From an uncultured Victivallales bacterium (GTDB taxonomy: Bacteria; Verrucomicrobiota; Lentisphaeria; Victivallales; GWF2-45-14): 64,000 bases of DNA. Position numbers and translations under genes: made by a program. Below, piece after piece: positions 30,068-61,556 of the stretch. Every line of letters begins with the position of its first letter. The stretch's first letter is position 1. The DNA is taken from NCBI GenBank assembly GCA_964651145.1, contig CAZYVR010000002.1, positions 63 to 64,062 of the forward strand, given 5' to 3'. Below the pieces are notes generated by a model that was given only the letters and a program-made list of their open reading frames with translations, made no database searches and had not been told where the DNA came from.

Positions 30068-30313
30068 TGTAATTCCTCAGTGAAAGAGTTTTTTAAAAGC
30101 AAAAACATGCCTCCGGGGGCTTCCCCGGACGCTTGCCGGGGCGGAATACCGGCTAGCCGCGCGGCAATGAGCGCTCGCCAAGGGCGAAAGTCATAGCTGT
30201 TTAATGTCGCCGCGACAGCGTGCACGGCGCATTGGGAGCCTGAAGCTTATTTCAAAGCGAAGCGGGAAATAAGCTAAGCTTGACAGTTGCGTCAGCTTCA
30301 CTGAGGGATTACA
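30068..30313. mobile_element. 246 bp MITE-like non-autonomous element
   Basis: Left end TGTAATTCCTCAGTGAA (30068-84); right end TTCACTGAGGGATTACA (30297-313, reverse complement TGTAATCCCTCAGTGAA, 16/17 match); flanked by direct repeat AAAAGC (30062-67 and 30314-19); no transposase inside. Confidence 0.8.
30113..30251 (+). repeat. Structured motif, copy A (inside the MITE)
   Basis: Ordered hairpins and motifs shared with 61438-61556: CCGG hairpin + ACGC, stem with GGCGGAAT loop, GGC(G)AAAG, AGCTGTT..GCGACAGC, GGCGC, AGCCTG..GCTT.TT. Confidence 0.7.
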
Positions 30314-30352
30314 AAAAGCTAAAGAAAGGCCCCAATAAGATTGATGTGTCTC

Positions 30353-30381
30353 TTGACAAGAGCAGGGCAAGGCTTTTATAT
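30353..30381 (+). promoter_or_regulatory. Putative sigma70 promoter
   Basis: TTGACA-N17-TTATAT upstream of the small ORF at 30419. Confidence 0.45.
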
Positions 30382-30418
30382 ATGAGCAATAAAAAGAAAA
30401 AATAGAAGAGTCTTTTCA

Positions 30419-30544
30419 ATGAGAAGTCTTTTGATGGCGTCAATCTTTGTTTTCTGTGTTCAAGCCGTTTCTTTTGTCGGAGGCTGTAAAGCAGTTCGGG
30501 AATGGGCGCAAAAACTTTTTAAAGACAAGGGGAATGTGAGATGA
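30419..30544 (+). CDS. Small putative lipoprotein/secreted peptide (41 aa), not in the ORF track
   Basis: MRSLLMASIFVFCVQAVSFVGGCKAVREWAQKLFKDKGNVR; hydrophobic stretch then VGGC; stop overlaps the next start (ATGA). Confidence 0.5.
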   Translation: MRSLLMASIFVFCVQAVSFVGGCKAVREWAQKLFKDKGNVR

Positions 30545-32025
30545 GCGATTTGGATAAACAGTTTTCAGGAACCGAAGCCAGTTTTTTGCGCGCTGGCGTG
30601 GGCAAATGCGATATAACCACCACTGAAAAAGGGGTGGCTGTGAATGACCCTTTGTACGCCAAAGCTCTGGTTTTGGACGATGGGAAAATCAAGGTTGCCA
30701 TCATTGTCATGGACGCTGTGGCTATAGGCGGAATATGCGATATAAAGGACGACTTTCTGCCTAAGCTTCGCAGCCGCATTGAAAAAGAATTAAAGATCCC
30801 GGGCCGAAACATCCTGGTCAACGCGTCTCATACTCACACCGCTGAACCGATGCTTTGCGAAGACGCGGAGCAGCTTGAAAGAACATTTGACGCCGTCAGC
30901 CAGGCTCTGAGAAATATGGTCGAAGTAAAGGTCGGCGCGGGCTCCGGCTATGAAGACCGAATTATGATAAACCGCACTCTCAGGCTGAAAAACGGCCAGT
31001 CATGGACGATTCGGCATAGCAATCCTTGCCCTCCCGATGAAGAGGTCGAAAGTCTTGGGCCGGTCGATCCGGAAATAGGCTTGCTTCGATTTGACCGGAT
31101 GGATGGCAGTCCTCTGGCGGTGGTTTACAATTTTGCCTGTCATCCATTGATAGGTGTTCCCGGAGGCGGAGTAACCGCCAATTATCCTGGCTTTGCGTCA
31201 AAAGTTATTGAAGACAATCTGGGCAATGACGCCATGGCTCTGTTTCTGCAGGGAGCTGGCGGTGACATAACCGAGGTTCTTTACAAAGACGTCAATCGCC
31301 CAAGAGACTCTGAGCCAATCGGGCGAATGCTGGGCTTGAGCGCCTTGAAGGCCTTGAAGGATATACAGGTTAAAGATGCAGCGCTGAGTGTTATTTCCGA
31401 AACGATAGAGCTTCCGAGAAGAACCGATATTCCTGAGCGCATTGAAGCGTTGCGGGTCGAACAGGATGAATTGCTCGAGTCATTGAGGTTTGTCAGCCTG
31501 AACTTAAAGGCCTTTCTCCCTTTGTATATAAAACACGCCCTTGACCCTGGCTTCCCTTTGGATTATTCCTACAGGTACTTCCAGGCGGAAAAGATTGGCG
31601 ACGATGGGCTTGTTGATATGGATTCCGTGAACAGGGAAAACATCAAGAAATATCTAAACAACATTCGAGCCATGGAAAAACTGGCCAGGATTCAGGACAA
31701 AATAGCAACCTTGAAAAGGCATCAGGCGATTAATGACGAATCCGGCAAATCCACAATATTGGCAGAGGTTCAGGGCATTAAAATAGGAGACTGCGTGCTG
31801 ATAACTTCTCCTAATGAGGCGCTTGTCGAAGTCGGTTTGAATCTTAAAAAGTCATCTCCATATGAGCACACCTTTATGGCTGCTTTTTCAAATGGCTATA
31901 TGCACTACGGCCCTCCCGCCAGCTACTACGACAGGGGCGGCTACGAAGTCACAGAGTGTTTCCTTGCTCCCGAATGGCACAAAAAATATGAGGACAAAGC
32001 CAACGACATAATCCAAAGGCTGTGA
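30541..32025 (+). CDS. Neutral/alkaline ceramidase N-terminal-domain family hydrolase (function unknown)
   Basis: LRAGVGKCDIT..DPLYAKALVLDDG; NASHTHT; YNFACHP; ANYPG; FLQGAGGD; NGYMHY.P...YYD.GGYEV. Confidence 0.7.
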   Translation: MSDLDKQFSGTEASFLRAGVGKCDITTTEKGVAVNDPLYAKALVLDDGKIKVAIIVMDAVAIGGICDIKDDFLPKLRSRIEKELKIPGRNILVNASHTHTAEPMLCEDAEQLERTFDAVSQALRNMVEVKVGAGSGYEDRIMINRTLRLKNGQSWTIRHSNPCPPDEEVESLGPVDPEIGLLRFDRMDGSPLAVVYNFACHPLIGVPGGGVTANYPGFASKVIEDNLGNDAMALFLQGAGGDITEVLYKDVNRPRDSEPIGRMLGLSALKALKDIQVKDAALSVISETIELPRRTDIPERIEALRVEQDELLESLRFVSLNLKAFLPLYIKHALDPGFPLDYSYRYFQAEKIGDDGLVDMDSVNRENIKKYLNNIRAMEKLARIQDKIATLKRHQAINDESGKSTILAEVQGIKIGDCVLITSPNEALVEVGLNLKKSSPYEHTFMAAFSNGYMHYGPPASYYDRGGYEVTECFLAPEWHKKYEDKANDIIQRL

Positions 32026-32191
32026 TCTGTAGAATGCTTGGGCAATTGAGGTCAGCTTTAGCAAAAGTCCGAAACATATCTGGCGGAGCTCCCGAATATA
32101 CTGCTGACGCGTCCAATTGAAAACAAAAGGCATATGTGATATTTTATAACAGAAAGAACAAACGTAAAAATGCCATTTTACACAAAATTAA

Positions 32192-32650
32192 TTACTCAGC
32201 CGATATCGTTTTTTCTTTTTTGAGATATTCATTCAAGATTGTTTCCATCTGAGATAATCTCTTCTTCGCCTCTTTTATTTTTTGGGCGACAGGAACATCC
32301 TTGCCTTTAGGGATTCCCTTTGTTGAATAAGGATTTATATAATGGGCCCATTTCACTCTGTTGTGCTCATAACGGACAAGTAGAGTTCCGTTTTTGCATA
32401 GCTGATATTTTCGGAATGGTGAATCAGCAGGAATTATCTTTTTGGGGATTTTACTGTTTGAGGCCAATTGCCCCTCTCCGAAAAAAAACTCCACATCTTC
32501 TTCTACAGAGCCAACCGCAGGTGTGCATTTTTTTTCAAGTTCTTCAATTTGGGTTTGGAGCTGGTTTAATTGTTCATTCAGGTTTTCCAGCGCGAAGCTA
32601 GCCATGGATACAAAAAATAGAACGATTGTTGATAGAAATGCTTTTTTCAT
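32192..32650 (-). CDS. Secreted hypothetical protein
   Basis: Signal peptide MKKAFLSTIVLFFVSMASFA; GGAGG RBS; coiled-coil-like ends. Confidence 0.7.
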   Translation of the reverse strand: MKKAFLSTIVLFFVSMASFALENLNEQLNQLQTQIEELEKKCTPAVGSVEEDVEFFFGEGQLASNSKIPKKIIPADSPFRKYQLCKNGTLLVRYEHNRVKWAHYINPYSTKGIPKGKDVPVAQKIKEAKKRLSQMETILNEYLKKEKTISAE

Positions 32651-32757
32651 TCTCCCCTCCGAACATATCCTTATGTTTATATAAATTAAGCCCGGCAACT
32701 TCAAATTCAAGGTGATTGTTTCAGCTCAAGTAATGCTGCCGCAACATTATCCTTCAG

Positions 32758-33267
32758 TTATTCCTCCAATATTGCCTCAAATCTTTTTTTCACGAGGATA
32801 GCTTCTTCTTTTTTCCATTTTGTAGAGAAATTATCTTGTCTGAGAGATTCAACCGCCTGGGCATAACAGCGTTTCGCCATTTTCCGGAAGTGCGCTCCAA
32901 AACTTCTCAAATATACACAGTAAATAATATTTGATATTGAACACAAAATAAGGATTACGAAAAGGGCCGCTATAATTTTCGTCTTATATCTTACAACAAG
33001 CCTTATTTGAAAAACTGTGAGCCCAAAGAACATACAGGAAATAAAGAGGATTAGGTCAATAGCGGTGAATCCGAAGAAGAAGCTTTTTTTACCGCCAGCC
33101 CCACAGAGTCCAATGCTCTCAGAATAAAAAAACATCGACAAAACGTGAACAAATGTATGAAATGTCCAGAAGAGTATGATGTAAAGCGTCAGTTCAGACT
33201 GGGCATAATATTTAGCGTTCTTGTTTTCATTCGTTTTCTGGTTTTCTGCGAATTGTCCAAAACACAT
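32758..33267 (-). CDS. Hypothetical membrane protein (start uncertain)
   Basis: Three hydrophobic segments; AT-rich; the N-terminus of the ORF overlaps the upstream gene, so the true start is probably later. Confidence 0.45.
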   Translation of the reverse strand: MCFGQFAENQKTNENKNAKYYAQSELTLYIILFWTFHTFVHVLSMFFYSESIGLCGAGGKKSFFFGFTAIDLILFISCMFFGLTVFQIRLVVRYKTKIIAALFVILILCSISNIIYCVYLRSFGAHFRKMAKRCYAQAVESLRQDNFSTKWKKEEAILVKKRFEAILEE

Positions 33268-33589
33268 AGACCAACACGCCTCCGAGCAAAGAGTTTAAAA
33301 GGAAGGATATGCCAAAAAACATGCCAAGAATCCACAATGGGCCGCCGGGAAGGAAAAGGAACATATATAGAAACTGACCAAGATAAATGCCGAGCGTGGA
33401 AAACCAAAAACGTGGAGGATTTGGAAACGCGGCAAGAACACCCGCAACAAAAAGGCAAAGGCAATAAGTCATTATGGGGCCATCCCATGGTTCAATTTCA
33501 CCCGAAAGAAACGGAGATGCCCACCAGATGGTTGCGCCTAATAAAATCCCCCAGATAAAAGAAGAGAATATTTCAAACCCCTTTTTCAT
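33227..33589 (-). CDS. Small four-TM hypothetical membrane protein
   Basis: 120 aa, four hydrophobic segments, GGGAGA RBS; EIEPWDG and PGGPLW motifs. Confidence 0.7.
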   Translation of the reverse strand: MKKGFEIFSSFIWGILLGATIWWASPFLSGEIEPWDGPIMTYCLCLFVAGVLAAFPNPPRFWFSTLGIYLGQFLYMFLFLPGGPLWILGMFFGISFLLNSLLGGVLVYVFWTIRRKPENE

Positions 33590-33628
33590 AGAAGTCTCCC
33601 TATTTTAAACTGCAAATAACTAATAAAA

Positions 33629-33796
33629 CTACCCTGTGCCGTCTTTAATGTCAAGGCGGAGAAGCATGTCAATTTATGCTCTGGCAAACTTGAGGCCCTC
33701 TGCCAGAGAAGAGGCTCCAACGCCCAACTGTTCGAGATTCTCCCCCCTCGAGGAACTCTCTTCATTTTTTGTAGTGCTCCTGTTATCGTCTTTCAC
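33629..33796 (-). pseudogene. Possible decayed response-regulator receiver-domain fragment
   Basis: One frame reads ..ENLEQLGVGASSLAEGLKFARA*IDMLLRLDIKDGTG*, resembling receiver GEAxSxxEAL..PDxxLLDIxLxDGxG, with an internal stop. Confidence 0.35.
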
Positions 33797-33832
33797 AAAA
33801 AAAATGAGCCCCGATATGAATATTCGGGGCTC
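33797..33832 (-). terminator. Intrinsic terminator
   Basis: gagccccga / tcggggctc 9 bp stem (33806-33832) followed on minus by a T8 run. Confidence 0.8.
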
Positions 33833-33920
33833 TGTTAAAATGTTTTTTACCGAATAAAACGTTAGTCCATCTGGCGCGCTTTATCGAAAATAGGTGCCAC
33901 TATAGGCATCTCCTTTATTA

Positions 33921-34130
33921 TTAGGTGCTTGTGTTTAAATTATTGCACTTTTTGGGCGTCCTGGTTTGCGTGGCGCAAGGCGTCCCTTTGCCTACCGTAA
34001 GGAACTTAATTTCTTTTACGGAACCTTCCAAAGATAGCAGGTCATCATCTCCAGTTACAATGAATAAGGATCGATTGTTTTTTTCCAAATGTCTATTTTC
34101 TCTCAAAGTTGACTTTTTGTGGCTTTCTTC
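33921..34130 (-). pseudogene. PIN-domain toxin C-terminal remnant
   Basis: LFIVTGDDDLLSL....EIKFLT matches the PIN tail IVTGDxDLLxL..I.ILT; the N-terminal acidic PIN residues are not evident. Confidence 0.4.
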
Positions 34131-34252
34131 AGCCAAGTATTTTGCAATATGCTTCTTTTTTACTGGAAAAATCTCCAAGTTGAGGCAAATTATAGCTTGA
34201 TTGCTTATTCGCAATGGAAAGAACAAGTTTAATATTTAAGGAGTTTATACTG

Positions 34253-36151
34253 ATGTCGGAGAAGACTAAGAAATTTAAGACAGAGGTTCAGCGTTTGCTG
34301 GACCTTATGATACATTCGCTTTATTCAAATAAAGACATTTTCCTGAGAGAACTGATTGCCAACTCTGCGGATGCCGTGGACAAGGCGCGCTTTGAATCCA
34401 TTCAGAATCCTGAAATGGCGGTCGACTGGGAAATAAGGATTGAAGCCGACAAGGAACGCAATACAATAAAAATCAGCGACAACGGCATAGGCATGACCGA
34501 GGCGGAAGTTGTTGACAATATCGGCACAATCGCCAAATCAGGCACTAAGGCTTTTCTGGACGCTCTTGAGAAAAAAGACGTAAAAGACTCGCCGGAGCTT
34601 GTCGGTCAGTTCGGAGTTGGGTTTTATTCCGCTTTTATGGTTTCCGACAAGGTCGAGTTGGTCACAAAAAAGGCTGGAAGCGACGAGAAGGCTGTGCGTT
34701 GGGAATCTGACGGAAAGTCAAGCTATACCATTGATGAGGCGACCAAAGAAGGGCAGGGCACTACTATTCTGATTCATCTCAAGGAAGACATGAAGTCTTA
34801 TCTTGAAGACTGGAAAATCAAGCAGATAGTAAAGAAGTATTCCGATTTTATTGAGTATCCCATAAAGATGTCCGTCACTAAAAAAGAGGACGGAGCCGAT
34901 GTCACTGAAGATGAGATACTGAACTCTCAGAAAGCAATATGGCTGCGCAACCCGTCCGACATCACCGAGGAGGAATACAAGCAGTTTTATTCTTATCTTG
35001 CGCATTTTGATTCCGAGCCTCTTAAGCATATTCATTATTCAGCCGAAGGCACATCCGAATTCCGGGCCCTTGTTTATCTGCCGACTAAAGCTCCTTTTGA
35101 CATGGCTATGCCTGATGAGCGCAAGAAAGGCTTGCATCTTTACGTAAGGCGGGTGTTTATTTCGGATTCATGCCCCGGGCTTCTTCCTGATTATCTGCGC
35201 TTTGTTCAAGGCGTGGTTGATTCCAGCGACTTGCCTCTGAACATATCCCGTGAATTATTGCAGGATAATCCTTTAATAAAGAAAATCAACAAAAATTTAG
35301 TTGCCAAGATTCTGAGCGAGCTTAAGAAGCTTCAGAGCAAATCTCGCGACGAGTATGTTTCATTTTTCAAGGAGTTTGGCCGCGTTTTTAAAGAGGGCGC
35401 CCATTCTGATTTTGCGAACAAGGAAAAGCTTCAAAATCTTGTCTTGTTTGAAAGCATGAACCATGAGGCCGGAGAGCTGATTTCTCTCAAAGAATATTGC
35501 GCCGCAATGCCTGAAGGGCAGAAAGAGATTTATTATATCATTGGCGAAAGCAGAAATGTGCTTGAAAATTCTCCTCATCTTGAATTGTTGAAGAGCAAAG
35601 GCTTCGATGTCCTTTTTATGACCGACCCCATTGATGAGTGGGTTACTCAATCCATAATGGAGTACGATGGCAAGAAGATGAGAGCGGCCGGCAAAGGCGA
35701 GATCGAACTTGATGAAGAAAGCAAAGAAGAAGCCGAAAAGAAAACTAAAAAGGCGGACAAGGAGCACAAAAAACTGGTTGAGGCCATGAAAAAAGCTCTG
35801 GAGAGCAAGGTTAAGGATGTGCGCTTCTCCAAGCGTCTTACCGACAGCGCATGTTGTCTTGTTAGCGACGAATTTGATCCAAGCGCCCATATGGAGCGCC
35901 TTTTCAAAGCAATGAATCAGACAATGCCCGCGACCAAGCGCATTCTGGAGCTTAATCCTGACCATCCCTTGATTGCCGGACTGCAACAGGTGTTTGACAA
36001 ATCTTCTGAGAATCCTAGAATATCGGAATATGCGGAGTTGTTATACGATCAGGCTTTGCTTACTGAAGGCAGCCCTATTCCCGATCCGCTTAGCTTTTCC
36101 AAGCGAATAGCTTCGCTTATGGTTGCGGAGATCAAGCAGGAAGTTGAATAA
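34253..36151 (+). CDS. htpG: Molecular chaperone HtpG (Hsp90)
   Basis: [67 protein letters not shown]; AAGGAG RBS. Confidence 0.97.
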
Positions 36152-36175
36152 AGCGTAAATTCAGCAAATTGCTTG

Positions 36176-36214
36176 TTGACAAAATATCTTAGGCAGTTTA
36201 CTATATTATATAGT
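36176..36214 (+). promoter_or_regulatory. Sigma70 promoter of nifU-nifS with an overlapping near-palindrome
   Basis: TTGACA(36176)-N17-TACTAT; actatattatatagt near-palindrome over the -10 box. Confidence 0.55.
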
Positions 36215-36273
36215 TTACAAATTCTATAAGGATTGCAGGTTTTAGGGTAATCCGAAATCAGGAGGTTGCGCTT

Positions 36274-37137
36274 ATGTGGGATTATACAGAAAAAGTGATG
36301 GACCATTTTCTCCATCCGAGAAATGTTGGCGAAATAGAAAAAGCCGACGCGGTGGGTGAAGTTGGAAATATTTCTTGCGGCGATGCTCTAACGCTTTATT
36401 TGAAGGTGGATGAGAATGAGAAGATCATTGACGCCAAGTTTAAGACTTTTGGCTGCGCGAGCGCTATTGCGTCATCTTCCGCGCTTACTGAAATAGTAAT
36501 GGGCAAGACTTTGGATGAAGCGTCAAAAATAACCAACAAGGATATCGTTAAAGTTCTTGGGGATCTTCCCGAGGAAAAATTGCATTGTTCTGTGATGGGA
36601 ATGGAGGCTCTTGAAGCGGCCATTGCTGATTATCGCGGAGAAGCGATTCCGGGTCAGGATCATGAAGGCGACCATGAAGGCAGAATAGTTTGCAAATGTT
36701 TTGGAGTGACAGACACCAAGATCAAGCGAGTTGCCAAAGAAAATGATATTCATACAGTTGAAGGCGTGACTAATTATTGCAAGGCTGGCGGCGCATGCGG
36801 CACTTGTTTGGATCAAATACAGGAAATTCTTGACGGGCTCTGGAGAAGGAGCGCCTCGGATTCTCAGCAGGAAGCAAAGCCTGAATCTGACTTTGACAGT
36901 CTTCCCATAATCAAGAAAGCTATTAAAGTTCAGGAAGTCATAGATAAAGAAATAAGGCCGATTCTTGAAAAAGACGGCGGCAGCATTGAGCTAGTGGATA
37001 TCAGGGGCAGCATCGTTCAGGTGCGCTTGAAAGGGCGTTGCTCGACATGTCCCACAGCGCATGTAACTTTGAAGCATACAGTGGAAGACAAAATCCGGGA
37101 GTTTGTGTCTCCTTCTTTAAAAGTGGAAAGCGTTTAG
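36274..37137 (+). CDS. nifU: Three-domain Fe-S scaffold protein NifU
   Basis: IscU-like domain (CGD, FGCASA, KLHCS); BFD-like CKCF..AGGACGTC; Nfu domain DGGSIEL..GRCSTC. Confidence 0.95.
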   Translation: MWDYTEKVMDHFLHPRNVGEIEKADAVGEVGNISCGDALTLYLKVDENEKIIDAKFKTFGCASAIASSSALTEIVMGKTLDEASKITNKDIVKVLGDLPEEKLHCSVMGMEALEAAIADYRGEAIPGQDHEGDHEGRIVCKCFGVTDTKIKRVAKENDIHTVEGVTNYCKAGGACGTCLDQIQEILDGLWRRSASDSQQEAKPESDFDSLPIIKKAIKVQEVIDKEIRPILEKDGGSIELVDIRGSIVQVRLKGRCSTCPTAHVTLKHTVEDKIREFVSPSLKVESV

Positions 37138-37139
37138 GC

Positions 37140-39561: not shown

Positions 39562-39645
39562 CCTCGACTATGATTGTTTTTTCCGGTTCTTGCGCCGGAG
39601 TGTTCTTTTAAATAATTTCAAGACGTGTGTTCTTGAATTTGTATG

Positions 39646-39786
39646 AATCTTCAGGGCAAGGTGATCCTATGCTATTTGGCAAAGGAAATTCCTGACCGGC
39701 GGTAAAAGTCCGCGAGTCCTCATAAATATGAGGACTGATATGGTGAAACTCCATAACCGACAGTATAGTCTGGATGAAAGAAGATT
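39646..39786 (+). ncRNA. FMN riboswitch (RFN element)
   Basis: AATCTTCAGGGCAAGGTGA..AATTCCTGACCGGCGGTA..AGTCCGCGAG..TGATATGGTGAAACTCCATAACCGACAGTATAGTCTGGATGAAAGAAGATT upstream of ribBA. Confidence 0.95.
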
Positions 39787-39819
39787 GAGCCGTTTTTTGC
39801 GGCTATGTTTTTTTTTGCG

Positions 39820-39849
39820 GCCCCGGAGATTATCCGGGGCTTTTTTTTT
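39820..39849 (+). terminator. Riboswitch-associated intrinsic terminator
   Basis: gccccgga-gatta-tccggggc followed by T9; a second hairpin agccg/cggct plus T run at 39788-39816. Confidence 0.85.
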
Positions 39850-39870
39850 GTAAAAATATGGAGAGATGAC

Positions 39871-41067
39871 ATGGCTGTGAATTTTGATCCGATTGAAGAT
39901 GTTATTGACGCTGTAAAACGCGGCGAACAGGTGGTGATCACTGATGATGAAAACAGGGAAAACGAAGGCGATCTGATAGTTGCCGCGTCAAAGGCCACCC
40001 CTGAGACTGTTAACTTCATGGCGACGCACGGACGGGGACTGATTTGTGTCCCAATAACGGAGAAGCGGGGCAAAAAATTGAATTTGGGCGATATGGCTTC
40101 GCTTGACGACCCTTTTAAGACTGCTTTTACTGAAAGCATTGACGCCAAAGAAGGCGTAAGCACTGGCATTTCAGCGTTTGATCGCTCGAAGACTATATCA
40201 GCCATAATTGATCCTGATTCGACAAGAAGCGACTTTGTTTCTCCGGGCCATTTGTTTCCGCTGATAGCAAGGCCGGGCGGCGTCCTGCAAAGAGCCGGGC
40301 ATACCGAGGCCGCAGTTGATTTGGCTCGCTTGGGCGGGCTTTATCCGGCTGGCGTGATTTGCGAAATAATGAACGACGATGGCACAATGGCGCGTGTGCC
40401 GGAGCTGGACGAATTCCGGAAAAAACACGGTCTGAAATGGGGATGCATTGCTGACCTTATCGCTTACAGAAGAAAAAATGAACGACTTGTCAAGCTCGAA
40501 CAATCCACCCGCCTGCCAACCAGGCATGGAGAATTCAAGCTATGCCTTTACAAAACTATGATTGACGACAAAGAGCACCTTGCTCTTGTTTGCGGCGAAG
40601 TGGAGGGAAAGGAAAATGTTCTGGTAAGAGTTCATAGCGAATGCCTTACGGGCGACGTGTTTTCTTCCGCGCGCTGCGATTGCGGCGATCAGCTGGAAAA
40701 AGCCATGAGCATGGTTCAGGCGGAAGGATGCGGCGTTATTGTTTATATGCGTCAGGAGGGCAGGGGGATCGGCCTTGGAAATAAAATTCACGCATACCGG
40801 CTTCAGGACGAGGGCCTTGACACAGTGGAGGCAAATGAGCGCCTTGGATTTTCAGCCGATCTCAGAGAGTACGGCATCGGCGCGCAGATACTTCTGGACC
40901 TCGGAGTCAAAAGCATAAGACTGTTGACTAATAATCCCAAAAAAGTAGTTGGCATAGACGGTTATGGATTGAAAATAAACGAAAGAACGCCTATTGTCAT
41001 TCCACCCGTGGAGCATAACAAGAAATATTTGTCCACGAAGAAAGAAAAATTAGGGCATATACTTTAA
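39871..41067 (+). CDS. ribBA: Bifunctional DHBP synthase / GTP cyclohydrolase II
   Basis: [31 protein letters not shown]; [30 protein letters not shown]. Confidence 0.97.
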
Positions 41068-41120
41068 TTTAAAGAAAAGCTTTTCGGGTAAAATTTTTTT
41101 AAAATTATGGAGATATTATA

Positions 41121-44536: not shown

Positions 44537-45568
44537 ATGTTGACATCTTATAATTCTGACGCCTCCATGATGCGCGCGGCATTGGGTTTGGCAAAGCGCG
44601 CGTGGGGCAAAACTAATCCCAATCCCATGGTCGGCTCCGTTATCGTAAAGGATGGCAAGATTGTCGGCAGGGGATATCACCGCAAAGCCGGAGAAGCTCA
44701 CGCTGAAATAAACGCGCTGTGCGATGCCGGAGAGAATGCAAAAGACTCCGCTTTGTATGTCACGCTGGAGCCATGCTCCACTACTGGCAGGACTCCGCCA
44801 TGCACAGAGGCCATTATAGCCGCAGGAGTGAAGAAGGTGGTCATAGGCTCTCTTGATCCGAACCCTAAGCATGCAGGGGCAGCCGTGAATCTGCTTGAGC
44901 GCGCCGGGATAGAGGTTGTTTCCGGAGTCGAGGCGGAAAAATGCGACAGGCTTAACGAGGCCTTTTTCAAATGGATAGTGACAGGCAGGCCTTTTGTCCT
45001 TTTAAAAATGGCGATGACTCTTGACGGAAAAATTGCAACATCGGAGGGTCTTTCCAAGTGGATAACCGGGCCTTTCGCAAGAAGGCGGGTGCAGAAGTTG
45101 AGGCAATGGTCAGACGCTATAGTGGTCGGCGGGGGGACGGCCAGGCATGACCGTCCGTCTTTGAACGTCAGGGAGCCGTCAGGATGGCCGTGTCAGCCGC
45201 GCAGAATTATAATCTCCTCAACGCTTTCGAGCAAGGACGCGCTTGAGCTTACGCCTGAGGGCAGGGAGCCTGAGGTCTTTTCGTTGCCGGACAAGGCGAG
45301 TTGGGATGCAATGTTTGTTCGTTTGGGCGCGGAAGATGTTGTGGCTGTCCTTTTGGAGGGCGGCGGCGAGCTTGCAGCTTCGGCTTTGAACGCGGGAGTT
45401 GTGGACAAGGCTGAATTCCATATTGCCCCAAAAATTCTTGGCGGGAGAAACAGCCGCGCAGTGGTTGGCGGGCCCAATCCCATGTCTCTTGCCGAGGCGC
45501 ATGGCTTTTCGGATTTGTCAGTGCGGCGTCTTGGCGATGACATTGCCGTCAGTGGATATATAAAGTAG
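44537..45568 (+). CDS. ribD: Bifunctional deaminase/reductase RibD
   Basis: PNPMVG, HAE, LEPCS..GRTPPC, K.AMTLDG, WIT, LEGG. Confidence 0.96.
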   Translation: MLTSYNSDASMMRAALGLAKRAWGKTNPNPMVGSVIVKDGKIVGRGYHRKAGEAHAEINALCDAGENAKDSALYVTLEPCSTTGRTPPCTEAIIAAGVKKVVIGSLDPNPKHAGAAVNLLERAGIEVVSGVEAEKCDRLNEAFFKWIVTGRPFVLLKMAMTLDGKIATSEGLSKWITGPFARRRVQKLRQWSDAIVVGGGTARHDRPSLNVREPSGWPCQPRRIIISSTLSSKDALELTPEGREPEVFSLPDKASWDAMFVRLGAEDVVAVLLEGGGELAASALNAGVVDKAEFHIAPKILGGRNSRAVVGGPNPMSLAEAHGFSDLSVRRLGDDIAVSGYIK

Positions 45569-45620
45569 TTGCTTTATCCCTGCCTTTGAGTTAAATTATC
45601 CAGATAAATAAAGGAATATT

Positions 45621-46262
45621 ATGTTTACTGGCTTGATTGAGACTACCGCAAAGATTATTGAAAGAAAAATATCGTCTGGAGCTGGAAGGTTCTGCCTTAT
45701 GCCAGCAAAGCCATTTGAGAATTTGAAATACGGCGAAAGCATAGCCGTCAACGGCGCCTGTCTTACGCTGGAAAAGGCCGAAGGCAACGGCTCTTTAACA
45801 TTTCACGTTCTTGAGGAGACTTTTAAAAGAACCAATCTTGGCTCTGTGCCGCTCGGCGCGGAAGTCAATCTTGAAAGAGCCATGGCTATGGGCGACCGCT
45901 TTGGCGGACATATTGTTACCGGGCATATTGACGCGACTGCGCCTGTCAGGCATTTTATGAAAAAAGGAGCAGACTATGAATTGCAAGTTGTCGCTCCGGT
46001 TGCGTTGTTGCCCTTTCTCGTGGAGAAAGGAAGCATCGCCATTGATGGCGTCTCGCTCACTTTGGCCGAGGTAGCCCACGATAGTTTTACTGTTCATATC
46101 ATTCCGGTAACTCTCCAGGATACCGGGTTGAAAAGCCGCAAAGAAGGGGATCTTGTAAATCTGGAGGCGGATTTGATAGGCAAATATGTGCGTCGGCAGT
46201 TTGAATGTGGAAACTATGGGAGCAGTGTTGACATGAATGTTCTCAGAAAGGCTGGCTGGTGA
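45621..46262 (+). CDS. ribE: Riboflavin synthase alpha chain
   Basis: MFTGLIE, SIAVNGACLT, VNLERA, GGHIVTGHID, KGSIAIDGVSLT, VNLE.D. Confidence 0.96.
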   Translation: MFTGLIETTAKIIERKISSGAGRFCLMPAKPFENLKYGESIAVNGACLTLEKAEGNGSLTFHVLEETFKRTNLGSVPLGAEVNLERAMAMGDRFGGHIVTGHIDATAPVRHFMKKGADYELQVVAPVALLPFLVEKGSIAIDGVSLTLAEVAHDSFTVHIIPVTLQDTGLKSRKEGDLVNLEADLIGKYVRRQFECGNYGSSVDMNVLRKAGW

Positions 46263-53724: not shown

Positions 53725-53764
53725 GACAATCATTAAAAACATAAAACATAAGAGAAAATAAACT

Positions 53765-54142: not shown

Positions 54143-54165
54143 CTTGACAGGCTTGGTGTGTCTTT

Positions 54166-54561: not shown

Positions 54562-54582
54562 ACAAATTTCAGGGGGAAATAT

Positions 54583-55005: not shown

Positions 55006-55011
55006 AATAAA

Positions 55012-55569
55012 ATGTTTGAAATGATGACAACAGAAGATATACCTGCTACTATTATCGGGCATGTTCCGGGCTTTGTCTGGATGCCAGTGAGAACAAAACC
55101 AAGAAGAGAAAAGAAAGTGGCCGAGTTTTGCGCGGCAAACAATATTTTATGCTACCTACCTTTGAGAAAAAGCGTGCGCCGTTACGAAAGAAGGACTGTT
55201 ACTTTTAATATCCCTATGTTTCCGAGCTATATTTTTTGCAATCTTAATGAAGCCAAATTCCAGCGCCTTTTGCACTCCAACGCCATTCTTTTCAAAATAA
55301 AGCTTGATGAGAGAGATGAGGAAAAGCTCATTGAAGAGCTCAGAGCAGTGCGCGCTCTTGAAACAATTTCAGCGGAGACGGACGTAGCGGTGAAGCCGGA
55401 GCTCGTTAAGGGAACGAAAGTCCTTATTCAGACTGGCGTGATGAAAGGCCTGCAAGGCATCATTGAGCGTCGGAAAGGCAAAGCATTGATATCGGTGAAT
55501 ATTGAACTTCTTGGACAATCTGTGTCGGCTGAAGTAGATGTTGAGGATGTGGCTCTTGACGAGGATTGA
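55012..55569 (+). CDS. NusG paralogue (RfaH/UpxY-like transcription antiterminator)
   Basis: W...RTKPRREKKVA.......I.CYLP.......Y.......P.FPSYIF (NGN); KOW G.KV.I..G...GL.G.I. Confidence 0.88.
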   Translation: MFEMMTTEDIPATIIGHVPGFVWMPVRTKPRREKKVAEFCAANNILCYLPLRKSVRRYERRTVTFNIPMFPSYIFCNLNEAKFQRLLHSNAILFKIKLDERDEEKLIEELRAVRALETISAETDVAVKPELVKGTKVLIQTGVMKGLQGIIERRKGKALISVNIELLGQSVSAEVDVEDVALDED

Positions 55570-55576
55570 CCAATAG

Positions 55577-56311
55577 CTATTTTATTGGGCGGGTGTAAAT
55601 AGAGCCTTGGGCTATCCCGGAATCGTTCTGTTTGCCGAAGTTCAGCAGCATGATGGCTGGAGGATTTTTTCTGATAAAAACATCGCCTTTTCCAGAAAGG
55701 CCGGAGGTGCTTTCATTTGTCACTGGACTCCAGCCGCTTGAGCTTAAGATGCCAACAAGCTCCGTGACTCCGTGAACAGGCTCATAAGGCACTGAAAAAA
55801 TTCCGTAATAAGCCTCTCTATTTTGCAAATACATATAAGTTATTGGAGTCGCGCTTGCCGGGAGCGGCAACGCGCTTGGCCAGTCAAAGTTTTGCGGCAT
55901 ATTAGCCGGAATATCCATGGCAAACTGAATTGTCGGATACGCGCTTCCGCCTATCTGAATAATGTAAATGCGCCGAATAGTTTTACTGGAAAGCTTTACA
56001 GACACTAGAGCTGATGTCGGATTGGACTTAAAAACAGCCTTGGGGTAAAGCTTTCTCAATTTCGCCAGGCAGTCTGTCAGGTTCTCTCTTACAAGGCTGA
56101 GCCCCAGAGACAGCTTTACGCCATTTATCACCACCGGTTCATTCCAGAGCTTGTTAGGCGACAATGCCTCATCCAATGCATATGGCGACGCGGCGGAACC
56201 TCCCTTTCTAGAAAAAGGCCACAATGAAAACACATCAGCATGAAGGCTGGCAGCGGCAAGCGAGAAAGTCAGCAAAAGCAAAGCCAAAGTTGGCAAACGG
56301 GTTCCACGCAT
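55577..56311 (-). CDS. Exported hypothetical protein
   Basis: Signal peptide ending LHA; last gene of the ABC operon. Confidence 0.7.
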   Translation of the reverse strand: MRGTRLPTLALLLLTFSLAAASLHADVFSLWPFSRKGGSAASPYALDEALSPNKLWNEPVVINGVKLSLGLSLVRENLTDCLAKLRKLYPKAVFKSNPTSALVSVKLSSKTIRRIYIIQIGGSAYPTIQFAMDIPANMPQNFDWPSALPLPASATPITYMYLQNREAYYGIFSVPYEPVHGVTELVGILSSSGWSPVTNESTSGLSGKGDVFIRKNPPAIMLLNFGKQNDSGIAQGSIYTRPIK

Positions 56312-56329
56312 TTTTCATCTCCGTTAACG

Positions 56330-57115
56330 CTATATCAAATCTCTGTTTTTCAAACGCAAAGCCGCAATTGCCAGAAGAATGACAGTTATGGACAAAGAGT
56401 AAAGCAAGAGAGAAAATGGGACAATGCCGATTAGTTGTGAATTCTGAAAATAGTAAATGAAGTTTGGGAAAAAATAATAGAACACAAGCAAATAAGCTTC
56501 AATTCCACTGCTCATGCTTTTCGGCAACAAGGCAACAAAAATAGGAATTGCGCTTACGGCCAGCGAAAAAATAAGATAAACCACAACTATAATCATTGCG
56601 CTGACATCGCCAAGGAAAGATGAAATTGCAACAGTCAAAGCAGTAAGCGGCAACAAGGCAAGGAGAAGATAGAATTGCTTGAGCATAACGCCGATAGGAT
56701 ATAATTCTCCAGCTAAAATAAAATGGGTGATAAATATAGTCAACTCAGTTGCCGCAAAAAGTATAGCGCACAACAAAAAAACGCCCAAATATTTTCCAAT
56801 AAGATATTCTGTTTTGCTGATAGGCTTTGATATCACCAGCATAATCATTCCGGTGTCTATGTCGCGAGGAATTTCCGTTGCGCCAGTGAACACGGCCATT
56901 ATCAGGGCTATGCCAATGCCGAAAAAAGAACTGGTCATTAAAGGATATCCTTTGGAAGACGCAAGTATTTGCGACAGGAGTCCGTTTCCTGCCTGGTCTT
57001 CCGCAAGCGGGTCTATTCCGGCAACCATATAGCCCAGCAGTATTCCAATGCATAGCATCATTGTAAAAGCAGGCTCTTTCATCTTTCTGACTGTAAGTTC
57101 AATAACTCCAAACAT
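56330..57115 (-). CDS. ABC-2-type transporter permease (PilI/XapB-like)
   Basis: EIPRDIDTG.IML.ISKPISK.EYLIGKYLG; six TM segments. Confidence 0.85.
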   Translation of the reverse strand: MFGVIELTVRKMKEPAFTMMLCIGILLGYMVAGIDPLAEDQAGNGLLSQILASSKGYPLMTSSFFGIGIALIMAVFTGATEIPRDIDTGMIMLVISKPISKTEYLIGKYLGVFLLCAILFAATELTIFITHFILAGELYPIGVMLKQFYLLLALLPLTALTVAISSFLGDVSAMIIVVVYLIFSLAVSAIPIFVALLPKSMSSGIEAYLLVFYYFFPNFIYYFQNSQLIGIVPFSLLLYSLSITVILLAIAALRLKNRDLI

Positions 57116-57835
57116 TTATTTTTGCCCCTTTGTATTCAGGTCGTTCAACATTTGCTCGTTAATTACAGTTTCAATACTGCGATATTCAAGAGATTTGGTT
57201 TCTTTCTTTCTGGCTTTAGCGTAAAGGTCTGTTTTTTTCATCTTGCCAGCCAAAAGGGCAATCTTGTCATAAAGTGATGAGTAGTCTTTATATTCCGGCT
57301 TAATTGTCATCAAAGGCATAAGGAATTCAAGGCTTTTCTGATCTGACGCCTTTTTCTGGTTGAGCTTAGCCAATCCCATGGACCACATATAATACTGGTC
57401 TATTTGCGGGAATTTTTTTATGTAGTCCTGATATTCTTTAATAGAAAGCTTTTTTCTTGTCTCAGGATTCAGGAGAAAAAACAGGTAGGCCCTGACGGTG
57501 CCTTTTTCCGAAGGATATTCTTTTATGACCTGTTTTAACAGGTTTTCCTTTTCTGACTCATCCTTCATTATCCCAGCCAGGCTGCATTTAGAGTAAGCTC
57601 GCTCAGAATCAGTGCTTGCCTTGGCTATGGAGTCTTTTATTTGTCCCACCTGAACTTTGTGGTCAATGGAGTCTCGTATGTAACCGGGCATTTCCGCCAG
57701 CACGGCGTCTATATTAACGCTGTCAGGCGCAATTCCAGAGACTATTGCTTGTCTTAATATGGACTCAGAACAGAAGTAAATAAAAAAAGCCGGAACAAGG
57801 ATTAAAATTGCTCCGGCTTTTATGTTTTTTTTCAT
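57116..57835 (-). CDS. Membrane-anchored helical-repeat (TPR-like) hypothetical protein
   Basis: N-terminal TM helix, helical charged body; within the ABC operon. Confidence 0.65.
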   Translation of the reverse strand: MKKNIKAGAILILVPAFFIYFCSESILRQAIVSGIAPDSVNIDAVLAEMPGYIRDSIDHKVQVGQIKDSIAKASTDSERAYSKCSLAGIMKDESEKENLLKQVIKEYPSEKGTVRAYLFFLLNPETRKKLSIKEYQDYIKKFPQIDQYYMWSMGLAKLNQKKASDQKSLEFLMPLMTIKPEYKDYSSLYDKIALLAGKMKKTDLYAKARKKETKSLEYRSIETVINEQMLNDLNTKGQK

Positions 57836-57854
57836 ATCAATCTTGTATCAGCGG

Positions 57855-58859
57855 TTACTTAGTCTTTTTGCCAGCTTTGGCCTTGGGTTTGGCCACTTTG
57901 GCTTTTACCACTTTGGCTTTTGCGCCCGAGTCTGTTTTATATCCGCATTTGTGACAGCAACGGCCTTTTAGAACAGTCTTGCACTTGGGACACTGTCCAT
58001 AAACCACAACTACTTCCCCGCAGGCAGAGCAGTATTTGTCGCCAGCGACATAAGTCGTGAGACAGGCAGTGCAAATATGCTTGTCCTTGAAGACTTGCTT
58101 CATGATATCATTTGTCAATCCCTGAACTTTCTGGTCATTGGGATACTCTTTTTTTGCTTCCTGGGCAGCTTTGAGCAATCTTTGGCTTATATCTGGAATA
58201 ATGGAGACGTCCATTTCTCTGGAACCGTCCGACTTTTTCCATTCGTCCATAAGGACTTCAAGCATCGCCGCTTTGTCATTTTTTAGGTTTTTGGATTTGG
58301 CAAGAGCGCGAAGGTAGCTGTTAACCACGTATTTTTCAGGAGAGGCTGACCTTTTTATTGCCTTGCGATAGAAATCAACAGCGAGCTGATATCTTTCAAG
58401 CTTTTCCTGCTCCGAAAGTTTTTTGTTGAAATTGCTGCTGTGTGTAAGAATAAAACCGGCATAAAAAGGCAATTTCCAATTGTTCTTCAGTTGCGGATTG
58501 TCGCAAGCTTTTCCAAGGAGTTTGACAGCCTGAAGCGGAGACTCAATAGACAGAGACATCACGCCAACCTGATAGGCCTTTTCAAAATTTGGATCATATG
58601 AAATGATTTTTTCAACGCGACGGATAACTTCATCCACGTTATTTTTGTCGACAGACTTTAATCCGCCCATATAGTTGATGAAAAGCATCCATTCCATGTC
58701 AGAAGCAAATTTGTGAAAGCCGCCGACTGGCGCTTTCGACATAAGCGCTTTTGAAGGACACAACTCGAGTTGTTTTTTATGCAGATACCCTCCTAGAGAG
58801 CCAGCAAGAAAAACCGCAACAATTATTACAATGATATGACTTACTACAGACTTTTTCAT
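57855..58859 (-). CDS. PilG/XapA-like TPR protein with a C-terminal double zinc ribbon
   Basis: ASD.EW..FINY.G; I..YDPNF..AY..G...LS; A..LL.K....P....W.LP..AGF; four CxxC motifs (CTAC, CSAC, CPKC, CHKC). Confidence 0.7.
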   Translation of the reverse strand: MKKSVVSHIIVIIVAVFLAGSLGGYLHKKQLELCPSKALMSKAPVGGFHKFASDMEWMLFINYMGGLKSVDKNNVDEVIRRVEKIISYDPNFEKAYQVGVMSLSIESPLQAVKLLGKACDNPQLKNNWKLPFYAGFILTHSSNFNKKLSEQEKLERYQLAVDFYRKAIKRSASPEKYVVNSYLRALAKSKNLKNDKAAMLEVLMDEWKKSDGSREMDVSIIPDISQRLLKAAQEAKKEYPNDQKVQGLTNDIMKQVFKDKHICTACLTTYVAGDKYCSACGEVVVVYGQCPKCKTVLKGRCCHKCGYKTDSGAKAKVVKAKVAKPKAKAGKKTK

Positions 58860-58874
58860 TATAGCAGTTCCTTT

Positions 58875-59606
58875 TTATTTAACATCTTTGTATCTGAAAA
58901 TAAGACTTGCAAGCGAGATTGCAAAACAACTGAACAAGAAGCCCCAAATTATAACAAGTCCCAAATAACTCCAGGACAACCTGTCGCTGTAAACGGCAAA
59001 AGCCTTGAAATTGAACAATTCAAGATCAGGAAGAACGCCAGCGTAGATATAAGGAATATTGGAAATCGCTTGCGTTGAATAAGCGAACCATATTGCTATA
59101 ACAGTAATAATGGGCGTTATCATTTCAGGCACAAACACAGAAAAGAACACTCCGAGCGCCGTCATTGGAATGACGCTGGCTGCGATAAGCAGATGCGCCT
59201 GAAGCATTGAGAGAGCCATTTTTTCGGTGAAAGCGAAATTGTAAATAATAAAGAAACCTGCGATTATGATCAGAGAAACGACAAGGCCAGTTACTACTGT
59301 GCCCAGCGCCTTGCCTATTAGATACTGCGTCCGTCCCAAGGGCTTGGAGAGGATTGTGGAAGCCACACCTTCTCTTAACTCCTTTGGGATTTCGAAGGTC
59401 ATTGAGATTACGACTAGAACGATCGCGATAGTGTTCAGCACAAGCGAAACATCAATCATTAACGGTTTGTGTTCCTGCATTGACAGCACATCATAATTTA
59501 ATGCGCTCGCAATCAGAATCAAGACACACAAAATAAGGAAGTACACTGAGCGCATCCTTAAAATTCTGCGCCACGTCCCACTGGCAATTGCGATAATTTC
59601 ATTCAT
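58875..59606 (-). CDS. ABC-2-type transporter permease (PilI/XapB-like)
   Basis: EIPKELREG...TILSKPLGRTQYLIGKALG; six TM segments. Confidence 0.85.
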   Translation of the reverse strand: MNEIIAIASGTWRRILRMRSVYFLILCVLILIASALNYDVLSMQEHKPLMIDVSLVLNTIAIVLVVISMTFEIPKELREGVASTILSKPLGRTQYLIGKALGTVVTGLVVSLIIIAGFFIIYNFAFTEKMALSMLQAHLLIAASVIPMTALGVFFSVFVPEMITPIITVIAIWFAYSTQAISNIPYIYAGVLPDLELFNFKAFAVYSDRLSWSYLGLVIIWGFLFSCFAISLASLIFRYKDVK

Positions 59607-59767
59607 TATTACCGACCCTTTCTTTCTCTTTTATTTATTTTATTAATTTAAGATAGAATAGCCTTTAAAACTATGGTTTTACAGGAACATTTTAACAATT
59701 CTATTGCTTTATTTTTCAAATTGATTCTCCCCTGCAAAAACTATATTCTAAGAAAACACAATGAATA

Positions 59768-60706
59768 CTAACGTCCTTTCTCGTTCTTTTCAATAAGTCT
59801 AAAGAAAAAATTTTCAAGGTTTTCTCTTGAAGGAGTAATTGTTATTCCCCCAGGATTTGCCTCTTTTAGCTTGTTCAAGCGCTCGCTTATTTTTTTGTTG
59901 TTTTGAAAAACAAGCTCCCAGCCACCGTTGTTAAGCCTGTGGCTGCTGGCTGCGTCTGTCATCAAATCCTTGGCTATTTCTTCATTGCCAGGGCTTATAT
60001 TAACTCGCTCTCCGACTTCTGACAGCAATTCATGAAGAGGTCCTGAGCACAATAAATTGCCCTTGGACAGGACTCCAATATGATCGCATATTCTCTCCAC
60101 GTCGGAAAGAATATGACTGCAGAAAAAGACATTGGTTCCCGCGCTTTTCTGCTCAAATATGATGTCTTTCAACTCCTGCCTTCCATGCGGATCGAGCCCC
60201 ACCAGAGGTTCGTCCAATATCAGGAGTTCTGGTTTATTGAGTATGGCTTGAGCAATTCCTATGCGCTGTATCATGCCTCGTGAAAATCCGCCAAGTTTGG
60301 ATTTGGCATGTTCAGTCATGCGCACTGCTAAAAGGACTTCTTCTATCCGCTTTTTGCGTTCGTTTGAGGGTATTCTAAGCAGTTTTGCGCAAATATTAAG
60401 GAATTCATATGCCTTTAAGTATGGGCTGAATGCCGGGGCGTCGGGAAGAAATCCTATTTTTCTTTTGGTTTCAATGTCGCCGATAGGCTTGCCCAGCAGA
60501 GTGGCAGAGCCGGTTGTCGGTCTTATCAAATCCATAAGGAGTTTTATTGTCGTTGTTTTGCCGGCTCCATTCGGGCCAAGAAAACCAAAAACACTCCCTT
60601 TTGGGATTAAAAGATTAAGGTTATTAAGCGAAGGAACGCTTTTTTTCCAAAACAACCACCCATAAACTTTAGAAAGATTTTCTGTCTGTATTACGTAATC
60701 ATCCAT
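59768..60706 (-). CDS. ABC transporter ATP-binding protein (PilH/XapD-like)
   Basis: GFLGPNGAGKTTT, FSRGMIQRIGIAQA, LDEPL.GLDP.GR, FCSHILSDVE. Confidence 0.93.
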   Translation of the reverse strand: MDDYVIQTENLSKVYGWLFWKKSVPSLNNLNLLIPKGSVFGFLGPNGAGKTTTIKLLMDLIRPTTGSATLLGKPIGDIETKRKIGFLPDAPAFSPYLKAYEFLNICAKLLRIPSNERKKRIEEVLLAVRMTEHAKSKLGGFSRGMIQRIGIAQAILNKPELLILDEPLVGLDPHGRQELKDIIFEQKSAGTNVFFCSHILSDVERICDHIGVLSKGNLLCSGPLHELLSEVGERVNISPGNEEIAKDLMTDAASSHRLNNGGWELVFQNNKKISERLNKLKEANPGGITITPSRENLENFFFRLIEKNEKGR

Positions 60707-60805
60707 TTTGAAAAAATATCAGCAGGAAATATGTTCGTCCCCACTGTCCTCCTGTAATAATAAATTAACACAAAACTCTTATAAAATCAAGGACGATCTT
60801 ATAAA

Positions 60806-61279
60806 TTATTTTTTAGGCAATTCCATTGATACGCCAAGATTAAAAGAACCTATGTCTTTTATGTGCATGGGGGCAATAAAAAAAGGATTTCCTGCTTTTG
60901 CGTAAAATCTGGCGCTTTTTCCGAGAACCACAGATGGCAATGACAAGTCTATTCTGTACTCATTGATCTTGGCGTCGGCCGCGCCTGCAATGATATTTAC
61001 AATTTCGCCCCATCCGTCCATTAAGTCACAATTAACTGTCTCTATTTCCTCCATTAGAAAAGAGCCCACCAGTTTCATGCCAGTGTCCAGGGGGGTGGTC
61101 AACATAACGGCTCCTTTTACATCGCCAGTGAGCCCGCAAATTGCCATAAGGTCGTCTGCCGACACTATCTCGCCGCCAACCTTTCTGATTTCTCCGCATC
61201 TGTGGAATGTTATATTGCACATCGAAAGGAAAGTTTCCTGGGTCGCTTCTATAAAAGCGTTAAGATGTTCAGCTTTCAT
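60806..61279 (-). CDS. cheX: CheX-family chemotaxis phosphatase-like protein
   Basis: NAFIEAT.ETF, GLTGDVKGAV, DGWGEIVNIIAG, LSLPSVV.G. Confidence 0.85.
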   Translation of the reverse strand: MKAEHLNAFIEATQETFLSMCNITFHRCGEIRKVGGEIVSADDLMAICGLTGDVKGAVMLTTPLDTGMKLVGSFLMEEIETVNCDLMDGWGEIVNIIAGAADAKINEYRIDLSLPSVVLGKSARFYAKAGNPFFIAPMHIKDIGSFNLGVSMELPKK

Positions 61280-61437
61280 TTTTCCCCACAATTTTTTAGT
61301 TTATTACAATACTATCTTAGAAATTAATAGAGCGCCAATTCGCGAAAAATTCAAAAAAAGTTTAAAATTCAGTTAAAAGTAGAAAGTGGGAAAGTAGTAA
61401 AGATGGAGCCGCCAAAAGTCCCGGGAGCTGGCGCTCC

Positions 61438-61556
61438 AACAAGCCGCAGGCTTTTAACGCGCCATTTGCGCTGTCGCGCAATCTCCTATATGCCAACAGC
61501 TTTAGGCTTTGCCCACCAGCGATTCCGCCGCTGAATGGCGTCCGGACTTAGTCCGG
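61438..61556 (-). repeat. Structured motif, copy B (no TIRs)
   Basis: Minus strand ccggactaagtccggacgc cattcagc ggcggaatc gctggtg ggcaaagcc taaagctgtt...gcgcgacagc gcaaatggcgc gttaaaagcctgcggcttgtt; same motif order as 30113-30251. Confidence 0.7.

Follow-up and report, generated by a model that had tools for sequence, protein, structure and literature searches.

The Correia elements of Neisseria (CREE or NEMIS) are non-coding, intergenic repeats of about 100-160 bp that occur in high copy number. They carry 26-bp terminal inverted repeats, duplicate a TA target, form hairpin RNAs and contain terminator and promoter signals, and to our knowledge no active transposase is known in their vicinity. 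Structured intergenic repeats of about 100-160 nucleotides (nt) are also represented by bcr1 of the Bacillus cereus group, ERIC/IRU, RUP and BOX, some of which are modular, some transcribed and some apparently mobile. Repetitive extragenic palindromes (REPs) measure 20-40 nt, have neither terminal inverted repeats nor target duplications, and are associated with RAYT proteins. The present analysis concerns a repeat that occurs twice, as copies A and B, in a 64,000-nt stretch of DNA from an uncultured Victivallales bacterium (contig CAZYVR010000002.1; the whole stretch is called the window here). With a probability of roughly 0.8, the two copies are members of one new family of non-coding miniature inverted-repeat transposable elements (MITEs), about 244 nt in length, in a Lentisphaerae-like lineage. 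Two G+C-rich islands that look odd in the window are accounted for by this assignment; one of them rewrote the 3' end of a DUF1638 gene.

The described systems that appear to be functionally closest are the Correia elements, together with bcr1, ERIC, RUP, BOX and similar structured MITEs or intergenic repeats of bacteria. Like the Correia elements, the family is small, non-coding, intergenic and high-copy, with terminal inverted repeats, hairpins and no transposase found nearby. Unlike them, it has a 6-bp duplication, unrelated 20-nt repeats, a length of about 244 nt and a multi-hairpin junction in place of one long hairpin, and there is no sequence similarity. The bcr1, ERIC, RUP and BOX repeats differ from it in their ends, have different duplications or none, belong to other phyla, and showed no sequence similarity in plasmid and phage searches. 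With MITEs derived from insertion sequences (IS) the family shares small size, terminal repeats, target duplication, lack of coding sequence, many copies, and nested and tandem insertions. In contrast to typical members of that class, no parent IS was identified, and two subfamilies with unrelated ends have one covarying core. The 6-bp duplication and the GAC...GTC ends point to no single IS family; 6-bp duplications are allowed by IS481, IS21 and IS982. Full-text literature searches returned no prior description of such an element, or of a MITE, in Lentisphaerae.

The initial annotation had described a structured motif with six elements in order at 30113-30251 (+) for copy A and 61556-61438 (-) for copy B. 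Both coordinates are correct, and the listed blocks are present in order: CCGGACGC, GGCGGAAT, AGCTGTT and GCGACAGCG-N5-GGCGC-N6-AGCCTG-N2-GCTT are common to the two copies. The notion that this likeness arose by chance between two G+C-rich hairpin regions draws on comparisons within the window alone, where A and B are only marginally the best match. The sole blastn alignment between them is a 41-nt block at the 3' end (73% identity, E-value 0.3). Shuffling one partner gave z-scores of 4.6-5.7, a value that describes this pair only. Among the 300-nt segments of the window the copies are narrowly reciprocal best, with gapped scores of 27-30.5 against 23-25 for unrelated segments, and the window-wide chain of exact blocks (k of at least 7) scores 33 for A-B and 31 for the runner-up. 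By themselves, six elements in order are not above chance expectation for a 64-kb window. A two-sequence MAFFT alignment of the window copies misaligned the 5' half, and no model was therefore built from A and B alone.

Further homologues of the motif were found in metagenomes. A scan with the pattern CCGGACGC-N(5-10)-GGCGGAAT-N(18-48)-AGCTGTT returned 32 loci, about 24 of which are clear relatives, and about 35 significant family copies are present in 24 loci plus the window. The relatives come nearly all from two Joint Genome Institute metagenomes, Ga0075121 (IMG 3300005932) and Ga0207996 (IMG 3300025586), the latter counted among Antarctic-lake metagenomes (PMC8542988). The host is an uncultured Lentisphaerae-like lineage in which the family is abundant. 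Loci L260 and L281 (also L285-L288) represent one region that is 100% identical at the protein level across Ga0207996, Ga0075121, an ENA assembly and a Logan assembly, so the same organism has been sampled repeatedly. Many contigs end inside copies, and this previously undescribed high-copy repeat breaks metagenome assemblies.

A hidden Markov model (HMM) and a covariance model (CM), R1, were trained on the metagenomic copies alone, with the window sequences excluded. Under these models copy B was matched by nhmmer with an E-value of 3.4e-50 (61580-61402, profile positions 33-244) and by CM R1 with 122 bits and an E-value of 1.4e-26 (61561-61423). The corresponding matches of copy A have an E-value of 1.1e-18 (30033-30299) and 53 bits with an E-value of 2.4e-10 (30108-30278). 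In blastn comparisons, copy A shares 85-92% identity with copies of one subfamily, the A-type, in L261, L280 and L268; for copy B, about 30 metagenomic copies gave identities of 83-89%. Because models built without the window sequences match both copies, A and B are true homologues and members of one repeat family. A chance likeness is refuted by these independent matches, with E-values from 1e-10 to 1e-50, and by the identities to metagenomic copies, and its probability is close to nil.

Searches beyond these metagenomes returned nothing comparable. A scan of genome contigs with the G+C-rich 3' pattern GCGACAGCG-N-GGCGC-N-AGCCTG matched at least 109 loci; among the matches listed, all are chance occurrences in high-G+C genomes and none has the 5' half. 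Viral contigs scanned with the motif patterns gave chance matches or nothing. Neither plasmids, queried by BLAST with both window copies and an intact family copy, nor phages, queried with the intact copy, gave a meaningful match. The suspicion that no known RNA family would fit was confirmed by a covariance-model search of Rfam (4,227 families, including transposon-associated RNAs and ribozymes), in which neither A, B nor an intact copy was matched. A sub-threshold Pseudomon-Rho match on the strand opposite copy A, at 30156-30267 (-), scored 29 bits, below the gathering score of 45; it was treated as chance since it has no counterpart in copy B or the intact family copy.

When the copies were extended in both directions, the motif proved to be the interior of a larger unit. 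The B-type consensus is 244 nt, and complete copies measure 244-246 nt. Its left terminal inverted repeat of 20 nt, GACGGAGCCGCCAAAAGTCC, is followed by an A-rich stretch, and its right terminal inverted repeat, also 20 nt, is GGACTTTTGGCGGCTCCGTC, the inverse of the left one. The interior contains hairpin P0' (CCGAC-GGA-GTCGG, then AATAAAAA), hairpin P1 (CCGGAC-TTT-GTCCGG) and a four-way junction, in which a closing helix, CGCCAT/ATGGCG, surrounds three hairpins: P2 (CCAGC-GGCGGAATC-GCTGG), P3 (for example TCGGC-AAA-GCCGA) and P4 (GCTGTTG...CGACAGC). A long hairpin, P7, consists of AGCTTGTTG ... GCGAAGC ... CAACAAGCT and is followed by TTTATTT. The sister subfamily, the A-type, has members in L261, L268 and L280 besides the window copy. 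It ends in TGTAATYCCTCAGTGAA and its inverse, with terminal repeats of 17-19 nt that are unrelated to the B-type ends; its core is homologous to that of the B-type, with P2 and P3 separated by an additional hairpin segment of 21 nt. L275 is a hybrid of A-type ends and the 5' half of a B-type core. The elements have no coding capacity, and only spurious short reading frames cross the copies. Internal deletions occur in L276b, window copy B, L275 and L268, and internal duplications in L272 and L284.

At L271:2520-2659 there is a 140-nt mini-element made up only of two inverted left-end modules, that is, the terminal repeat with its terminator-like hairpins; this suggests that the end modules alone may suffice for mobility. 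A match resembling a terminal repeat inside a membrane-protein gene of L276 was set aside, as it belongs to no element.

Perfect 6-bp target duplications flank 11 of the 16 complete B-type copies, in which both ends are present. The duplicated hexamers are TAATTG, GACATG, GCATTA (twice), CAGAAA, TCACTA, TAATAC, GATTGC, CAATTT (twice) and TGATTT, the last being counted after a one-base shift of the L256 boundary, and the B-type targets often resemble TAAT(G/T)(C/G). In L280, a B-type element lies inside the end of an A-type element and splits its repeat, with TAGTGA duplicated on both sides. Small size, no coding capacity, terminal repeats, a target duplication of fixed length, multiple dispersed copies and nested insertion are thus all found, and the only defining feature of a MITE that is missing is a known autonomous partner. 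Many accepted families of bacterial MITEs also have no known autonomous partner. Every copy, B included, is a MITE or the remnant of one, and the motif is the element's own interior. The proposal that a free-standing non-coding RNA or ribozyme had been captured by a MITE as cargo is not supported, as the terminal repeats and 6-bp duplications show that the copies themselves are MITEs or remnants.

In all, three insertions of B-type elements into or at TAAT-containing A-type ends were noted (L261:4876-4900, L268:5659-5680, and L280:1515-1525 and 1760-1780), which fits either a TAAT target preference or composite A+B units that were copied together. In L253, two head-to-tail B-type copies (133-376 and 383-627) are separated solely by a shared hexamer, CAATTT. 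The pair arose either by tandem insertion or through duplication of the element together with its target.

The window copies were delimited by comparison with the family. The features of copy A, a complete element that extends beyond the motif as first drawn, are as follows.

30033-30067, plus strand: solo B-type left-end fragment, ATGGCGCCACTAAAAGTCTTGAAAAATAAAAAAGC; in the family HMM alignment, 30033 corresponds to profile position 2
30062-30067, no strand: target duplication AAAAGC to the left of copy A, read from the sequence
30068-30313, plus strand: copy A, complete A-type MITE of 246 nt with inverted repeats at its ends (TGTAAT...ATTACA)
30068-30084, plus strand: left terminal inverted repeat, TGTAATTCCTCAGTGAA; the same end is present in L261, L268 and L275
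30108-30278, plus strand: structured core, as matched by CM R1
30113-30128, plus strand: P1, from the sequence and the model alignment
30135-30153, plus strand: P2, with loop GGCGGAATA at 30140-30148, from the sequence and the model alignment
30154-30174, plus strand: subfamily-specific insert
30175-30187, plus strand: P3, TCGCC-AAG-GGCGA
30197-30219, plus strand: P4
30245-30274, plus strand: P7, with GCGAAGC in its loop
30297-30313, plus strand: right terminal inverted repeat, TTCACTGAGGGATTACA; the same end is present in L261, L268, L275 and L280
30314-30319, no strand: target duplication AAAAGC to the right of copy A, read from the sequence

Copy A probably inserted into an older B-type copy, because it directly follows the solo B-type left-end fragment. 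The third hairpin of the initial annotation, GGC-GAAA-GTC, was mis-assigned in this copy; the homologue of the family P3 is the hairpin at 30175-30187.

Copy B is a decayed B-type element that likewise extends past the motif. It has lost about 32 nt at its 5' end, left repeat included, and an internal deletion of about 34 nt removes P7. It had been described as having no terminal inverted repeats; the right repeat is present at 61421-61402, and the left end alone is missing. Its features are listed here.

61402-61580, minus strand: copy B, decayed B-type MITE, from nhmmer and the family alignment
61402-61421, minus strand: right terminal inverted repeat, GGACTTTTGGCGGCTCCATC, which differs at one position from the family left repeat in reverse complement
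61423-61561, minus strand: structured core, as matched by CM R1, with helices from the sequence and the family structure
61556-61542, minus strand: P1
61540-61535 with 61465-61460, minus strand: junction helix
61534-61516, minus strand: P2, with loop GGCGGAATC at 61529-61521
61515-61503, minus strand: P3
61500-61492 with 61478-61470, minus strand: P4
61542-61566, plus strand: P1 of the strand opposite the core, which there forms a terminator-like hairpin with a T run, from a consensus scan
61560-61577, minus strand: element-derived last five codons of DUF1638 (P-T-K-P-E) and TAA stop; the frame ends at 61560, and the family consensus CCGACGGAGTCGGAATAAAAA aligns here

In its DUF1638 relatives the protein ends a few residues earlier than that of the window. 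In the nearest of these relatives the next gene is reached after 35-86 nt of AT-rich spacer, which contains no motif. CheX follows in L249 and apparently in L252 too, and in L251 another gene comes almost directly. Because the spacer after DUF1638 is short, AT-rich and free of the motif in the relatives, copy B represents an insertion. No exact match to the window DUF1638 protein was found, and these nearest relatives are only 61% identical to it.

The structure of the core was evaluated on two alignments. The first, a MAFFT alignment of 22 B-type cores, was scored against a hand-drawn structure of 43 pairs. In it, 91.9% of the cells are paired and 10 pairs show double-sided changes; none of 500 column shuffles reached any observed measure, and sliding the 3' partners by 1-3 columns reduced the pairing to 24-42%. 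The second alignment, of 35 copies that include the A-type and other divergent ones, has 90.5% of cells paired and double changes at 24 of the 43 pairs, figures that are biased towards the structure since the copies were aligned to the model. At least four perfectly paired versions of P3 (CGGC/GCCG, CGCT/AGCG, AGCC/GGCT and CGCC/GGCG) and three of P7 (CTTGTTG/CAACAAG, CTGTTTTA/TAAAACAG and CTTATTTC/GAAATAAG) are present, and these versions are reassorted among copies. The 9-nt P2 loop GGCGGAAU and the GCGAAGC cap are nearly invariant, even across subfamilies. The compensated stems around conserved loops that had been noticed in two copies therefore hold family-wide.

Covarying stems with invariant loops, shared even by subfamilies that have unrelated ends, are also the main argument for the core being a functional structured RNA gene, such as a small RNA, a ribozyme or a transposition cofactor, whose inverted repeats would be an outer closing helix or a vehicle for spreading. 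The four-way junction with its 9-nt invariant loop fits this idea as well, and so does a core of up to about 60% G+C in a window of 44% G+C. The terminal repeats, however, are conserved in sequence and do not covary, and they are flanked by the 6-bp duplications. The folding z-score of the core strand, -6.2, favours an RNA, but the opposite strand folds nearly as well, with -5.1. P4 carries one conserved T-G wobble on the core strand, yet a count of G-T versus A-C mismatches aimed at the folding strand showed no clear asymmetry once this fixed wobble was set aside. All copies are intergenic, and their orientation to genes is mixed: 12 share the strand of the upstream gene and 10 are opposite to it. 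A promoter scan of two copies detected none within the element, the Rfam search matched no family, ribozymes included, and large internal deletions affect many copies (among them window B, L275, L276b and L268). We consider an RNA gene of this kind decidedly unlikely, and an RNA-level role for the core has a similarly small chance. A related proposal, also unlikely, is that the core (four-way junction, GGCGGAAU loop and GCGAAGC-capped hairpin) is an RNA or single-stranded DNA module, for example a mobilisation cofactor or a regulatory small RNA, that was combined with terminal repeats of at least two unrelated kinds and would thereby spread on transposon ends. A guide- or bridge-like RNA of a mobile system, as suggested in the initial annotation, finds no support because no recurrent enzyme flanks the copies, their orientation is mixed, both strands fold about alike and no promoter was found in the copies scanned. 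The bridge RNAs of IS110 and the omega RNAs of IS200/IS605 are encoded beside or overlapping their cognate recombinase or nuclease gene, in elements that lack terminal inverted repeats; here no cognate gene was reported beside the copies or among the window frames scanned, and the elements have repeats and duplications.

If the copies are members of a MITE family, their mobiliser would be a DDE-type transposase that acts in trans on the DNA and is encoded by an autonomous element not yet seen, as suggested by nested insertions, terminal repeats and a duplication of constant length. The hairpins would be kept by selection on the element lineages that go on copying, and we infer that the stems change in a compensated way for this reason. 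P0' and P1, which are accompanied by T runs on one strand, and P7 on the other may act as intrinsic terminators and insulate neighbouring genes in both directions, and the central junction with its invariant loop might be a binding platform for the transposase or a host protein. A consensus scan of the intact L281 copy revealed the same terminator-like feature at P1 as in copy B and a second one at P0', both on the strand opposite the core; on the core strand, P7 followed by TTTATTT is terminator-like by eye only. A function of the core, if confirmed, for example as an RNA, as a protein-binding platform or as a terminator cassette, would make the family a useful example of selection that acts inside a MITE; failing that, it is a small transposon family of the ordinary kind.

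Several points weigh against the assignment to a MITE family. A search of about 265 kb, comprising the loci and the window, yielded neither an autonomous element, with family ends 0.8-3 kb apart, nor a transposase with these ends. A clean target duplication of the A-type is known from window copy A only. The subfamilies with unrelated ends share a core, which would be unusual were the interior a mere relic of a parental element, and the conserved junction and invariant GGCGGAAU loop have no explained role. Terminator activity is predicted from consensus scans only. Finally, template switching in palindromes could yield compensated changes without selection.

The genes around the copies were surveyed for a mobiliser. 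Among 90 reading frames around the copies no near-identical multi-copy gene was found, and the 25 commonest of the 113 Pfam families in these frames, all ordinary cellular ones, include no transposase, reverse transcriptase, TnpB/IscB, IS110 or Y1 protein; a family with a single member could have escaped this survey. In 50 of the window's 53 frames of at least 120 residues, Pfam detected no RAYT, TnpB/IscB, IS110, reverse transcriptase or Y1 protein; the window genes are ordinary cellular genes (RecD, glycoside hydrolases, riboflavin genes, FtsY, HtpG and others). A mobile-system enzyme (RAYT, TnpB/IscB, IS110 or reverse transcriptase), which had been named as a possible companion of the motif, is not seen: no recurrent protein flanks the roughly 35 copies, and none of these enzymes was found in the 50 window frames.

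These surveys also bear on an origin of the REP/BIME or IS200/IS605 type, in which an HUH (Y1) transposase such as RAYT or TnpA acts on hairpins of single-stranded DNA and a TnpB/IscB guide RNA may take part. The family resembles REPs and the related BIMEs as a hairpin-rich, intergenic palindromic repeat with compensated stem changes, and the description of the motif as REP-like holds in so far as it is a small intergenic repeat. It fails at 244 nt, far above REP length, and with terminal repeats, duplications and no RAYT reported. Elements mobilised by HUH enzymes have neither terminal inverted repeats nor target duplications, and here both are present. As no Y1, TnpB or IscB protein was found in the surveyed flanking families and window frames, and none of the Rfam families matched, we regard this origin as very unlikely.

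A 177-residue frame at L253:685-1218 (+) lies 58 nt from the two tandem B-type copies. It has HTH_28/29/23/32 domains, such as IS630-type transposases carry at the N terminus, with no catalytic domain, and is probably a truncated or domesticated transposase fragment. It was rejected as the mobiliser, since IS630 makes TA duplications and not 6-bp ones.

The sole recurring similarity among the 90 flanking frames is a short N-terminal stretch common to five otherwise different proteins (L257:966-1754, L275:1-480, L281:9046-9669, and L283:169-834 and 834-1457); it is also present in the window at about 12046-12657 and 19723-20346. Within this paralogous set the identity is about 55-70% over 50-80 residues, and the stretch resembles the prepilin-type N-terminal signal that is common in bacteria of the Planctomycetes-Verrucomicrobia-Chlamydiae group. 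A perfect sigma-70 consensus promoter (TTGACA-17-TATAAT) is situated at L281:7752-7780 (+), about 47 nt outside the element and ahead of a ROK-family gene. The window's only Rfam match is an FMN riboswitch (RF00050) at 39643-39789 (+), with a score of 106.5 bits. It is located directly upstream of a ribBA-type gene at 39805-41064, and other riboflavin genes are found at 44537-46259.

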